A DNA stretch of 64,000 nucleotides from contig CAVRPA010000006.1 in the NCBI GenBank assembly GCA_963723005.1, positions 81,280-145,279 of the forward strand. The letters run 5' to 3'. The notes beneath the pieces are model-generated. The model worked only from the letters and a program-made list of their open reading frames with translations. It was not told where the DNA came from and searched no databases. The DNA comes from an uncultured Acidobacteriota bacterium. Its GTDB lineage: Bacteria; Acidobacteriota; Vicinamibacteria; Vicinamibacterales; UBA2999. The stretch's first letter is position 1. Every line of letters begins with the position of its first letter. Positions 56,760 through 60,631 of the stretch are shown one piece after another. The position numbers and the translations under genes were made by a program.

Positions 56760-59018
56760 CTATGGCGTGACGGCTTCTGTTCGCATCAGTGTCTGCAACA
56801 GCTCCACAGCTGCCGGAAGGGAATGGAACGGAAGTTCGAAACAGTCGGCGGTGCGCATCCACTGAACGAGCGCCTCTGCCTGCGCCCGATCGAGCCTGTC
56901 GGTAGAAAGCCTCGATTCCGCGAGAAGTCTTCGAAGCGCTACGGGGCGTGCCATGGGCCGAAGCTCCGTCACGTTCGCCCGGTTGTACGCCGGAAAGACG
57001 ATCCACTGAACGCGATGCGGCGCATCGGTGGTCGGAAGCGAGTTGGCCGGTGGCTGCAGGTATCGGACCTCCAAGTGGTCCTCACGCCGATGGATCGCAA
57101 GCGAGTCGATGTCCGGGTAGAGGTGTCGCAGAGGCGCCAGACTACCAGCCTTCACGGTCAAGGCAAGCGGGACGGGCCGGGCGGCGAGCGAACCCTCTTC
57201 CAGAATGCCGATCTCATCGGAGAAATACGTTGCGCCGGACTGTATGAGGGCGGCGGTCAACGTGGTTTTGCCGCTTCCAGCTGCCGCAGGCATCAACACG
57301 CAACCGTTACCGAACGACACGACGCCGGCGTGAACGCTGAGCAGGCCAGGGCTGTTGTCCACGGCGATCGACCGCATCAACATCTTCAGCGTGGGCACCG
57401 CACTCCCGATCCCGTCGCACCGTGCTAGTAGCGAGGATCCTGAGAGGACGGCCAATCCGCCGTTTCGCGACAACTGAACCTTCAGCGTGACGTCCGGTTG
57501 GCCTTCTGCCTGCTCCAGGTGACCGAAGGCCTCGTGAATGCGCTGCCTGAGTGCAGCGGAGCCCACTTCCAGCGCGAATGTCGTCGCCACGAGGCGATAA
57601 AGCTTGGTTCCGGCCGTTCCGTGGTTTTCGAGCTGTCGGAAGCCGTGGTGATGAGCGCTTGCTGCGCACCCGGATTTCCTCCGCCTGGAGGTCCACTTCG
57701 TCGGGATCGAGACGAAGAAAAGCGTCGAGATCCTCTCCAACAATCTTGAGGTCGCCAGCGATCGCCGATGGGGAGTGCCTGAACTCGGCGCGCAGTCTTT
57801 CGTTCGTCAAGAGCTGCGCCAGCGCTGCGGTCAGCGGCACCGGGTTGCCGGCGTCGGTGCCAGGATGACTGACGTAGCCCTGTCCGAACCACTGCCGAAG
57901 GATGGTGCCTACGTGGCCCGATGCCTCCGCCGGCTGCCACACCGAAGGCACGTTGGTAGGCCTGGGTGATGGCATCGACTTCGAGTCCATCCTCTAGCAG
58001 GCACCACACGAGCGTGGCTTGAGTGTTGAACAGGGACAACTCCCGATGATGCGCCGAAAAGCAAACGCCTTCGTCTTCGAGCACGAACAACGAAACGTCT
58101 GGGGACAGCAGCGGTCGGTCGATCCTGGGGGTCGAAGGACTGCGTAACGGGAACTCGTGTTGGCGCTGCCTTGAGGTTCGATCCTGCGAAACGGCCGGAA
58201 GGCTCCGCAGACTACTGAACCTCGAGCAGGCGCATCCTCCGCTAGCCGGACGAGGCGGTCCAAGTCGCGCTTTCCGGGTTCTGCGTCGCCAACGCCGTCA
58301 ATCTCTTCGAGCAGCAGGTAATCGGGAGTTCCGCGCGCCAACAGGTATTCCAGGAGCACCCAGGCTTCCGCGTCTATGCTCCCGCCTCTGCGATGGCGCC
58401 ACCGACCCGCCTCCAGTTGCACGCCACCCAGGCGCGCCGCGCCGATCATTTCTGTGGGTACCTCGTCCAGCCAGCGATAAGGGCTGAAGGCGCGGTTCCG
58501 GCTATCGATCAGGAGGGTTGAAATATCGAGGAGGAGTCGGCATTCCGCCTTATGGCAGAGCCGTTTGAGAAACTCTGCTTCCTTCAATGAGCCAGGAATC
58601 CGCAGCGGAGCGGCAATCGGTTCGACCAGAATCGGCCGGCCGAGCGACTCCCGAGCCTGAATAACGTGCTCGGCCGTGGAGGAGACGGTGGATTCGCTGA
58701 AACCGATTGGAATGCTCGCGTCCAATCGGATACCGCCGGCTTTCGAGAAGCCGAGCGGCTGAACGAAGGTCGTGGCACATGTGCGCACTCGCCCAAAGCG
58801 GCTAGCGCTTGGAGTTCCTCGGGGTCGAGTGGGCCGGGCGTTCCGAGGGATAGGTGAGACGCTCGCAACAGGACGCTGCAGCGAGCACCCAACCACGCCA
58901 GGAACGCCGAGGGGCGTCCGAAGAATCCCTCGGCGGCAATCTCGATGGCCTCGGGAAGGGTCGACTCGCCCTCCGCCGCTCGCACGTCGGAGTCGCCTCC
59001 GACTGAAATGCCGATCAT
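56760..59018 (-). CDS. Probable multidomain RiPP-type maturase: degenerate DUF692/MNIO-like + PqqD/RRE + helical domain + HprK-related kinase (at least 4 frameshifts)
   Basis: 59018-58230: 'HLSLGTPGPLD', 'LGRPILVEP', 'EAEFL..LC....CRLLLDI', 'LLLEE'; 58100-57870: 'FVLEDEGV.F....L..FNTQATLVWCLL..G' (PqqD); 57650-56760: 'HAGVV..G..VLM.AAAGSGKTTL.AAL...G..YFSDE' (HprK-like P-loop). Confidence 0.75.
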
Positions 59019-59049
59019 GCAAACGTCAAATCAGGGACGGCCGACCGAA

Positions 59050-59313
59050 CTAACTAACGGCGACGGCGTTGCCGTTGCCGTTGCCGTTGCCGTTGCCGTT
59101 GCCGTTGCCGTTGCCGTTGCCGTTGCCGTTGCCGTTGCCGCGGTATTGCGCCGCCGCAGGCTGCGCCGACGCAGTCAGCAGCATCGCCACAGCCGGCGCG
59201 GTGACCGCAGCCTTGCCCAACTGAGCAAGGAACTCGCGCCGAGCCGCAGTTTCACCGGCAGCGGCAACATTGGTCTGGGTTGTATGCTTCGACATAGATG
59301 TACGCTTCGACAT
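59050..59313 (-). CDS. Putative RiPP-like precursor peptide: Tat-like leader + QYR(GN)12AVAVS core
   Basis: 'AARREFLAQLGKAAVTAPAVAMLLTASAQPAAA|QY'; GAGG upstream; lies between the nucleotidyltransferase and the RRE-kinase gene. Confidence 0.8.
   Translation of the reverse strand: MSKRTSMSKHTTQTNVAAAGETAARREFLAQLGKAAVTAPAVAMLLTASAQPAAAQYRGNGNGNGNGNGNGNGNGNGNGNGNAVAVS
59068..59139. repeat. Perfect hexamer repeat (GTTGCC) x12 encoding (Gly-Asn)12 on the minus strand
   Basis: Counted directly: 72 bp. Confidence 0.95.
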
Positions 59314-59403
59314 AAAGATTTAGCCTCGCCTCGCGTTTATGCTGTAAGTCCCTCGTTGAGGCGACTTTTGTCTGTAAGTCACCGCACTGGAGATCTGCGT
59401 CCA

Positions 59404-60631
59404 CTAGCGAAAGCGCCGAATTCCAGGTTTCAACAGCTTCCACGCTGGAACCATAGCAAAATTCATGCCCCAGGCTATCGGGAAGTACGCCCATCGTAAC
59501 ACGCCCGGCAGCGAAACGATTTCCAGGTGCCACCTCTGCGGTGAGAACAGTGTTCGGGTCACGTATCGGTATCGGTCACTCCAGTCGCTCGCGCATGCGC
59601 AGACGAAAGTTATCAAGCTGGTGATTTGGCGTGATCGCATGTGCCGGCTTGAACAGGTTCAACATTGCGCGCTGGCCTAATTTCCTGGCCAACGGGTCAG
59701 CCGCGAGTTCACGATGGATAACCGCCGGCAGGTTAGCGCCGGCGGCTCGGTGTGCAAGCCACAAGCTGAGCAATAGAATGCGGCCACAACCGGCCCGTCT
59801 CGCATCGGCTAAGCAGGTTTCCAGATCCAATTCAGTGAAGCGGTTCAACAACGCCGGCCACGTCGCGAATCCAGGAGAGTCGCTCCCAGTGATGCTTCGA
59901 CTCCGTGAATGGCCAAGGTCAGCAGAAGGTCTCCTGGCGTGAGCGACTGGACATTGCGCCCGGCAAGCACTGTCGGTTGCGCACGCGCGTACATTTTTTC
60001 ACAATCCAAATCGATCGCCAGGGCTCGCTGGCTGAACGCCCAGTGGGGCTCCACCACCATGTCGTCTGACAGACGGACGAACTGATACTCGCACTGGAGT
60101 CGCTCATACATCCGCCGTTGAGTCGGGTTCAGGCGGAATGTTCCGGGACCACGGCCCGCATCCTGATACCCGCGTGATTCGAGCACATCGCAAATCGCTT
60201 CCACATCCTGCCGACGGACGAGAAGGTCCAGATCGCCGGGCGCACGCAGCGAGACATCTCCGAACACCAGCTGCGCGAGCAATGGACCCTTGAAAGGGAC
60301 GGCAATGATGGACCGCTCTGCCAGCGCATTCAGCACGGCGAACAACTCGTCTACGAGCGCTGAACTCTGCTCGGCAAGGTGACCGCAGTGGTGACGAAGC
60401 GCCTGCTAGCAAGTCAGCGGGAACAAGAGATGGATCCGCCCGCTCAAGAGCCCCCAGTAGCGCCGGGGTCATCCGATGCCGGAGAGCAAGCTCGACCACC
60501 CGCTGCCAGTCCAATGGCTTGCGAAGTGCCTCATCGACGTCCTCCCCCGCACGATCGGCGACACTGGCGGCCGCAAGCAATAGGGCGTTTTCAGGAACGT
60601 CGATGATCGAGGATTCAGAGGACGTGGCCAC
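59404..60631 (-). CDS. Nucleotidyltransferase family protein (NTP_transf_5-like); at least 3 frameshifts
   Basis: 'LDWQRVVELALRHRM.P', 'FKGPLLA...GD..LR..GDLDLLV', 'VEPHW', 'LAIHG.KH.W.RL.W..D'. Confidence 0.85.

Follow-up and report, generated by a model that had tools for sequence, protein, structure and literature searches.

What is the substrate of a kinase and a nucleotidyltransferase that lie on either side of a gene for a small, repeat-bearing peptide? The question is raised by a cluster of three elements in the 64,000-nucleotide stretch of DNA analysed here (the window), which is contig C6:81280-145279 of the genome of an uncultured soil Acidobacteriota bacterium of the Vicinamibacterales (G000; 6.1 Mb in 22 contigs, 88% complete). 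The elements are a PF14907 nucleotidyltransferase gene, an intact 87-residue peptide open reading frame (ORF) and a reading path through segments that resemble multinuclear-iron oxidases (MNIO, DUF692), PqqD and HprK-like kinases. All three are on the minus strand, at the place given in the initial annotation of this DNA, and are flanked by a cyclophilin gene and an FG-GAP repeat gene. We consider it rather likely that the cluster encodes a leader-guided kinase and nucleotidyltransferase pathway of the type that makes peptides synthesized by ribosomes and modified after translation (RiPPs), with the 87-residue product as the substrate that is then exported. The evidence for this includes the conserved pairing of a family of such peptides with the kinase and a structural model in which the leader of the peptide lies on the PqqD-like domain. 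The features of the cluster are as follows.

59404-60631 (approximate ends), minus strand: PF14907 (NTP_transf_5) nucleotidyltransferase gene, from Pfam pieces and the frame map, read through four frame changes
59050-59313, minus strand: putative precursor peptide gene, 87 residues, intact ORF; leader profile match at E 8.5e-20 and member of alignment A3
59149-59313, minus strand: leader, residues 1-55, from the Tat-like motif and the aligned precursors
59053-59148, minus strand: variable tail (putative core), residues 56-87, consisting of QYR, (GN)12 and AVAVS
59067-59140, no strand assigned: perfect hexamer tandem array, CGTTGC on the plus strand, encoding the Gly-Asn repeat (Tandem Repeats Finder, 100% matches, score 148)
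58237-59018, minus strand: MNIO-like (DUF692) TIM-barrel segment of the fusion gene, from the PF05114 match of 87.5 bits and the frame map
57673-58126, minus strand: PqqD-like (RiPP recognition element, RRE) and helical segment of the fusion gene, from the frame map, PF05402 on homologues and the secondary structure of the model
56760-57605, minus strand: HprK-related kinase segment of the fusion gene, in which the P-loop reads GSGKT (TIGR04352, 105.5 bits)

A family of small peptides beside the kinase

The peptide ORF is preceded by GAGG, 10 nt ahead of its ATG, and is separated by a 31-nt spacer from the next gene, the fusion gene, which spans 56760-59018 as a whole (both the GAGG and the spacer were read directly). 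Its leader has a twin arginine at residues 25-26, then FL, GK, a hydrophobic stretch with Pro40, and AAA at residues 53-55. The hexamer array comprises 12.3 copies at 100% match and, in the frame of the peptide, gives exactly 12 Gly-Asn pairs that are followed by AVAVS. An 87-residue peptide with a leader and a (GN)12 core ending in serine had been proposed for this locus, and that description was confirmed. The gene opens with a near-perfect 18-nt duplication (59278-59313, minus strand) and so has a pair of in-frame Met-Ser-Lys starts with a distance of six codons between them.

In every orthologous locus the MNIO-like part is immediately preceded by one or two small ORFs. In an alignment of 20 of these precursors (A3), the twin arginine and one proline are invariant, and a Gly-Lys pair and the initiator methionine are nearly so. 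The consensus runs from ARRxFLxxxGK through the hydrophobic stretch TAPAVALLLAAS to K-x-AAA, with no conservation beyond it. The tails are hypervariable, of low complexity and specific to each locus, and include Gly-Asn, Arg-Pro-rich, Gly/Ser/Cys-rich and Pro-rich tails, Asp runs, and NGGSTQ or GHSGGR repeats; some tails in the family are only a few residues long. When the A3 profile was searched against 1.84 billion representatives, E<=1e-3 was reached by 2194 proteins and E<=1e-10 by 167. The 150 top matches were all 49-156 residues in length and 146 of them carried the twin arginine. The tails of these 146 contained Gly (19%), Arg (10%), Ser (8%), Asp (7.5%), Pro (7%), Asn (5.5%) and His (5%), and a tyrosine was present within about 22 residues after the hydrophobic stretch in 103. 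Profile searches of the peptides found no curated Pfam or NCBIfam model that names them.

These comparisons changed the standing of two features that had drawn attention to the window peptide. Further Gly-Asn-rich tails do occur in the family (e.g., P0059, P0061, P0092, P0107, P0130 and P0156), and the Gly-Asn repeat is just one of many low-complexity tail types, so it was dropped as a hallmark of the system. As for the C-terminal serine, 30 of the 146 peptides end in R, 27 in S, 13 in D, 12 in G and four in T, and five of the 20 aligned precursors have S or T as their last residue. The C-terminal serine is therefore not a feature of the family, and the suggestion that it is the conserved target of modification was rejected at that level; it stays a possible target in the window peptide, which does end in serine.

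The peptide family keeps close company with the kinase. A leader profile, built from 17 leaders, was searched across 9176 ORFs from 520 kb of DNA and its matches were confined to kinase loci, being found after deduplication in 23 of the 65 loci with a kinase versus none of the 23 loci without one (96 kb in all). Where the MNIO-like, PqqD and kinase parts occur together, a peptide is directly upstream in 13 of the 15 loci, and the other two begin at the MNIO gene with almost no upstream DNA. In three genomes of the same genus, one or two homologous peptides precede the fusion, and in two of these genomes a nucleotidyltransferase precedes it too.

A second precursor, also of 87 residues, is encoded in the same genome outside the window (G000:C5:162760-163023, which is locus L101:9761-10024 on the plus strand). 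Its tail starts with QYRG and is Gly-Asn-rich, and its sequence is identical to that of representative P0061. This gene is within a stretch of low third-position GC and adjoins a 142-residue ORF, which by eye is a candidate HicB-type antitoxin.

The other genes near the related loci are varied. In L059 and L060 a ThiF-YcaO fusion of 837-846 residues adjoins the peptide (L059:2113-4626, L060:116-3982); L060 additionally has a nitroreductase-family gene and its peptide tail is Gly/Ser/Cys-rich, and the tail in L059 is short and Cys-free. A PqqE-like radical SAM gene is in the neighbourhood in L012, a TauD-like gene in L063 and an RmlB-like gene in L015. The nucleotidyltransferase is fused to a GT1 glycosyltransferase in L056, where it adjoins RmlC and a carrier protein, and to a methyltransferase in L061. 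Judged by gene content, the pattern is that of a conserved leader-recognition module with variable tailoring, as in RiPP clusters, and the sugar genes would fit a glycosyl-phosphate product such as that of pseudomycoidin. No conserved protease or transporter was identified among the annotated neighbours of the related clusters.

The fusion protein, the nucleotidyltransferase and a proposed pathway

The reading path through three enzyme-like segments proved to be a protein in relatives. In three genomes of the same genus (G018, G011 and G014) the kinase match is within open frames of 880, 833 and 837 residues, and the corresponding ORFs of 866, 787 and 818 residues match PF05114 in their N-terminal part and TIGR04352 in their C-terminal part, one of them with a weak PqqD match between. 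As these are single open frames in three genomes, the arrangement is no chance product of ORFs in high-GC DNA. The fusion is genuine, and the DUF692-like, PqqD-like and HprK-like path first read in the window was confirmed by relatives that hold all three domains as one protein of 787-866 residues. A collection of 5.8 billion proteins contained 52 relatives: 34 cover at least 77% of the 866-residue query (616-853 residues), one is a partial protein of 539 residues and 17 are PqqD-kinase proteins of 476-492 residues. Alignment A2 was made from 31 of the 34 long relatives, with the exclusion of three that had 77% coverage. Ten metagenome loci have the same parts, mostly with the MNIO and the PqqD-kinase as two overlapping ORFs, and the fusion is therefore the arrangement of one lineage. 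Among 300 further genomes sampled from the order, only separate MNIO or kinase matches were listed.

An AlphaFold model made with A2 had a predicted local distance difference test score (pLDDT) of 86.7 and a predicted template modelling score (pTM) of 0.84. Two disordered linkers connect its three parts, which are a TIM barrel (residues 1-262), a PqqD-like and helical part (302-468) and a kinase (513-806). The top Foldseek matches were TglH (E 7e-16), the DUF692 structure 3bww (TM-score 0.80) and MbnB, with target-normalised TM-scores of 0.73-0.80. The PF05114 match was clear, with 87.5 bits for the window piece and 95-120 bits for intact orthologues against a cut-off of 25. The kinase segment best matched TIGR04352 (HprK-related kinase A), at model positions 90-280 of 280 in the window, and has the P-loop GSGKT, of which G636, S637, G638, K639 and T641 are invariant in 31 homologues. 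For the PqqD-like part, PF05402 scored 18.6 bits on the L012 protein, below its cut-off of 23.4, and had no match to the window pieces or to L013, and a precomputed listing assigns it to many of the 52 homologues. The A2 profile also matched PDB chain 9x8z_B, a "PqqD family protein", at E 0.0045. Of the family models that had been named as checks on the initial annotation, PF05114 and PF14907 thus match above their cut-offs, TIGR04352 falls under its cut-off, and PF05402 has a sub-cut-off match in L012 and listed matches in homologues. Residues 465-510 of the L013 fusion, a helical segment after the PqqD-like domain, have a weak, sub-cut-off likeness to NF038399, a leader-type family of the NHLP clan (E 0.0048, 17 bits), and this segment is well conserved across the 31 homologues.

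The nucleotidyltransferase, likewise proposed from the sequence of the window, was confirmed by PF14907 matches to both the window pieces and the orthologues. The window pieces are three ORFs, each in a different frame, and they cover consecutive parts of the model (positions 2-39, 63-193 and 212-247 of 249). With the cut-off at 31.2 bits, the central window piece scores 91 bits and the orthologues 154-201 bits, including 166 bits for an intact 484-residue orthologue in L013. A Gly ... Asp-x-Asp stretch (GDLDLL), which we take to be the catalytic motif of the nucleotidyltransferase superfamily, is readable in a window piece. The enzyme adjoins in eight of the 15 three-part loci, and a profile built from five PF14907-like genes that adjoin standalone kinases of the order matches 32 of the 65 kinase loci after deduplication. 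In pseudomycoidin biosynthesis, a kinase phosphorylates a serine and a nucleotidyltransferase adds one or two hexoses to the phosphate, as reported in the text of PMC8498205. The kinase and the PF14907 nucleotidyltransferase, which the initial annotation had seen as an enzyme pair, are conserved enzymes and are the same pair as in that pathway.

The complex of an 813-residue fusion (with A2) and the neighbouring 69-residue peptide (with A3), both from L013, was predicted alongside three controls. It scored 0.65, 0.59 and 0.62 (overall 0.62) and the best control 0.00; in calibration of the tool the mark was reached by 58 of 80 solved complexes and by two of 110 mismatched pairs. The pLDDT of the partner was 48-54 and the agreement of contacts between runs was at least 34%. 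The confident contacts are those of leader residues 12-42 on the PqqD domain, the tightest being between leader residues 32-37 (P-A-V-A-L-L) and residues 336-344, which make up a strand and begin a helix of the PqqD-like part. There were extra leader contacts with kinase residues 750-777 and MNIO-like residues 96-99. Recognition elements of the PqqD type bind leaders as an added strand next to their third strand, the PqqD domain being a peptide-binding module, and since this mode is known the success of the model may partly reflect a likeness to solved complexes. The model nevertheless supports binding of the leader by the PqqD domain as an added strand. Together with the conserved pairing of peptide and kinase, it lends support to the earlier proposal of a non-lasso RiPP-type cluster with the small ORF as the likely substrate.

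The leader also resembles a signal for twin-arginine translocation (Tat). Its Tat-like parts are the arginine pair (present in all 20 aligned precursors and in 146 of the 150 top family matches), F-L, a moderately hydrophobic stretch, a basic residue and an AxA site. The genome encodes tatC. On the strength of this motif, Tat export of the product seems to us to be evenly balanced between true and false.

The initial annotation had listed DUF692 proteins as oxidative enzymes of RiPP pathways, and for the N-terminal barrel here such a role was not supported. The ligands of Fe1 and Fe2 in TglH are H71, H107, E151, D184, H216 and E258, and those of Fe3 are D184, N187, D229 and H231, as given in the text of PMC10880893. 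The same source reports that in a formate assay of TglHI the alanine variants of E151, H216 and E258 were at the level of the control, and that by mass spectrometry H71A, E151A and E258A were without product. The corresponding columns were located by profile alignments to 3bww and TglH and by MAFFT alignment with standalone MNIOs of the same order. All ten of the standalone MNIOs have H, H, E, D, N, H, D, H and E; one of these controls, L036, is from an unpublished genome (G318) and also served as the column reference, and the result stands on the other nine. In contrast, the 31 fusions have R (29), P (29), E (30), D (31), T (21) and R (30) at the equivalents of H71, H107, E151, D184, N187 and H216, and the last three positions vary, with the D229 equivalent often kept and the E258 equivalent variable. 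In the window translation the first six of these residues are R, P, E, D, T and R. Among the separate MNIOs of related clusters, those beside Cys-rich peptide tails (L053-L055 and L061) retain H, H, E, D, x, H, D/E, H and E; L057, L059 and L060 have lost the first two histidines, and L056 is degenerate. Going by these columns, the fused barrel cannot build the canonical iron site, and with all three iron-binding histidines lost oxidative chemistry is unlikely. We infer that the fused barrel is a scaffold in which arginines fill the former metal site, and it may have a different, non-oxidative activity.

From these pieces we propose the following pathway. The Tat-export-like leader would be gripped as an added strand by the PqqD-like domain of the large protein, in keeping with the model, and the HprK-like kinase would phosphorylate a hydroxyl in the short variable tail, which in the window peptide could be that of the C-terminal serine or of Tyr57. 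By analogy with pseudomycoidin, the PF14907 nucleotidyltransferase would then extend the phosphate with a sugar or a nucleotide. The iron-less MNIO-like TIM barrel would take part as a scaffold that shapes the leader-binding surface and not as an oxidase. The product would exit via the Tat pathway and signal peptidase, a route we suggest since neither a protease nor a transporter is encoded within the cluster.

Weighing the alternatives

Several observations weigh against this pathway. Its kinase and nucleotidyltransferase chemistry is an inference by analogy, and the kinase scores for TIGR04352 (105-113 bits) are below the cut-off of 200 and cover model positions 85-280 of 280, the C-terminal two thirds. 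The nucleotidyltransferase was found in only eight of the 15 loci with all three parts, and no such gene was seen on the long contigs of L012 and L060, although both carry the peptide and the kinase. The association of the peptide was counted only in loci that had been found via the kinase, and a peptide-led search of 400 other Acidobacteriota genomes had no match at E<=1e-6; as only 14 first-look candidates were scored per genome, we do not take this empty result as absence. The second precursor in the genome has no kinase of its own, and the only kinase of this family in the genome is that of the window. In the complex model the tail is unplaced and confidence in the fold of the peptide itself is low. 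None of the 20 peptides had a Tat-signal family among the matches listed at E up to 10 in Pfam and at E up to 0.01 in NCBIfam, although there was a weak likeness to TIGR02811 in four of the 20 (best E 0.0019). HMMER filters drop most weak matches, so this null is no strong counter-evidence, and with the curated models silent the Tat claim rests on a reading of the motif. Lastly, the tandem precursors of L077 (1026-1184 and 1288-1446) are nearly tail-less, ending about 2-8 residues after the signal-like region, and are hard to square with a secreted core peptide.

It is conceivable that the small ORF is instead an ordinary Tat-exported mini-protein, or an uncleaved membrane anchor, and that the kinase and nucleotidyltransferase act on a sugar or a component of the cell envelope. 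The signal-like region is indeed the most conserved part of the peptide, some family members have tails of only about 2-8 residues (L077, P0160), and RmlB- and RmlC-like sugar-nucleotide genes are near two loci. We give this explanation only a slim chance, as PqqD domains are modules for binding peptides, the leader lies on this domain in the model with controls at zero, YcaO and dehydrogenase genes adjoin Gly/Ser/Cys tails, and the peptide is adjacent in all 13 loci that have upstream DNA. A different role for the large protein would follow if its MNIO-like domain were an active multinuclear-iron oxidase with the peptide as its target, at a Tyr or an Asn for instance. The PF05114 match of 87-120 bits, the resemblance of the fold to TglH and MbnB, the retained equivalents of E151, D184 and often D229, and the nearly full ligand set of the separate MNIOs beside Cys-rich tails (L053-L055 and L061) would all suit an oxidase. 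It is nonetheless highly improbable, given that R, P and R replace the H71, H107 and H216 equivalents in 29, 29 and 30 of the 31 fusions and in the window, that E258 is variable, that alanine variants of ligand residues in TglHI are reported as inactive (PMC10880893), and that the tails of the fusion lineage are without Cys.

The remaining alternative concerns the state of the locus itself. The reading path had been described as frameshifted, and this was confirmed by ungapped tblastn with intact orthologues as the query, which identified at least eight frame changes across the two enzyme genes. The fusion gene has four (58806-58776, 58237-58126, at 57937, and 57673-57572), and the nucleotidyltransferase gene, mapped against the intact L013 orthologue, has four near 60403, 59898, 59848 and 59584. 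Logan contigs from four sequencing runs were aligned to the locus, the best run having 0.29 of the sampled words and parts of the locus being without cover in any run. Contigs of run X20 (96-99% alike, depth 13-19) have one base fewer at each of 57932, 58143, 58210 and 59388, and a contig of run X2 has one base fewer at 59583. Three of the eight mapped frame changes coincide with these single-base differences. Over the hexamer repeat the run contigs were uninformative, as hundreds of unrelated ones pile up there at a depth of 700-1300 with many loose ends. Elsewhere in the genome, rpoC (G000:C10:98115-102130) is split across three frames, with open frames of 1238, 287 and 178 residues, and the neighbouring rpoB is whole.

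We think it distinctly more likely that the frame changes are assembly errors than decay, because rpoC is also split and the run contigs are without the single bases at three sites. The cluster is, consequently, probably functional in the organism. The opposing explanation, that this copy is a decaying pseudogene remnant with real mutations and that nothing is made from it except perhaps the peptide, is rather unlikely but draws on several observations. The other five of the eight frame changes are uncovered or identical in the run contigs, and genuine decay therefore keeps some probability for this copy. None of the indel sites is a homopolymer, and frame changes are denser in the cluster (at least eight in 3.9 kb) than in rpoB and rpoC (two in about 8 kb). 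The GC of the cluster (0.59-0.63) is below that of its flanks (0.66-0.74), and the X20 contigs differ from the locus by substitutions as well as indels. Against decay, an essential gene, rpoC, is split in the same way, as is a TonB-type receptor gene that adjoins the cluster, and the genome is 88% complete in just 22 contigs, with G002, another few-contig relative, showing a split fusion too. In addition, the frame-mapped pieces remain 41-64% identical to orthologues along their whole length with no deletions, and near-identical contigs exist that are without the extra bases.

Related systems and neighbouring features

Among the closest known systems are the phosphorylated and phosphoglycosylated lasso peptides. 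Like paeninodin and pseudomycoidin, the cluster has the same kinase and nucleotidyltransferase families beside a PqqD-type leader-binding element. Unlike in them, the kinase forms one protein with PqqD, which in this lineage includes an MNIO-like barrel as well, the leader is unrelated and Tat-like, and the C-terminal serine is not conserved. There was also no lasso cyclase or B2 peptidase among the annotated neighbours in the window and the related loci, although no search was aimed at either family; the initial annotation had noted the same absence, and a lasso pathway was rejected on these grounds. TIGR04352 is presumably a neighbourhood-defined family that joins a PqqD-family protein and a nucleotidyltransferase. 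The kinase here matches that family best, and standalone kinases of the order adjoin PF14907-like genes; on the other side, the scores here are about half the curated cut-off, and no precursor family was found attached to that definition.

The MbnBC, TglHI, BufBC and HvfBC systems share with this one an N-terminal TIM barrel (PF05114) coupled to a peptide-binding partner, with modelled leader contacts in the present case. They are unlike it in that the fused form here is without the iron-binding histidines, the tails of this lineage are Cys-free, and the partner is a PqqD and kinase protein and not MbnC, TglI or a DUF2063 protein. Bufferins are MNIO-modified peptides with a Sec signal that is dispensable for modification, according to the text of PMC11626156. 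As in the bufferin clusters described there, the precursor has a general export signal where a classical leader would be, and neither a dedicated protease nor an exporter belongs to the cluster (PMC11626156). The signal here, however, is of the twin-arginine type and is predicted to be bound by the recognition domain, and the putative core is a short low-complexity tail, whereas bufferins use Sec and have a folded Cys-containing domain. The word Tat is absent from the text of the bufferin paper (PMC11626156).

In the literature searched, a scope that left out most subscription journals and supplements, neither the fusion nor Tat-like RiPP leaders nor the peptide family was found to have been described. 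The system thus appears to be undescribed as far as searched, in agreement with the impression that this combination was new, and its known part is RiPP tailoring by a kinase and a nucleotidyltransferase. Beyond the initial annotation, the analysis adds the likeness of the leader to a Tat signal, the large extent of the peptide family, the modelled contact between leader and PqqD, and the graded loss of iron ligands. If the pathway holds true, the pair of HprK-related kinase A and PF14907 nucleotidyltransferase gains a substrate family of thousands of peptides that curated models do not name. It would also be, as far as we found, the first RiPP family with a Tat signal as its leader, which would account for the missing protease and exporter. 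An MNIO turned into a non-catalytic scaffold would bear on genome mining that counts every PF05114 match as an oxidase.

A bolder version of this pathway is possible, although we regard it as speculative and more doubtful than not. These clusters might be the biosynthetic core of an undescribed RiPP superfamily of very large size, with a leader that is at the same time a genuine Tat signal. The fused PqqD domain, in the manner of a Tat proofreading chaperone, would withhold the signal until phosphoglycosylation of the short tail by the kinase and nucleotidyltransferase is complete, after which Tat and signal peptidase would export and release the product. The products would be diverse secreted low-complexity peptides (Gly-Asn, Gly-His, Gly-Ser/Cys, Arg-Pro or Asp-rich), possibly binding metals or minerals, and the iron-free barrel would be a pseudoenzyme whose ancestor actively modified Cys and persists in sister clusters.

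A scan of the cluster region for promoters and terminators identified no promoter-like sites and four terminator-like sites versus 3.8 expected, which is at the level of chance. The TonB-type receptor mentioned above (CarboxypepD_reg/OMP beta-barrel, window 61400-63998, minus strand) is split into overlapping ORFs at 61400-62992 and 62859-63998, a further frame change adjoining the cluster. Such a receptor adjoins the cluster in four of the five same-genus loci, being downstream of the fusion gene in L013, L014 and L015 and upstream of the nucleotidyltransferase in the window, and this may be mere synteny. The window also has heptamer arrays that are unrelated to the cluster: GAAGGCA x5 (26309-26343), GATCCCT x7.9 (26412-26465) and CAAGACC x12 (51154-51234), the last of which sits just within the 5' end of a long ORF (51023-53761).

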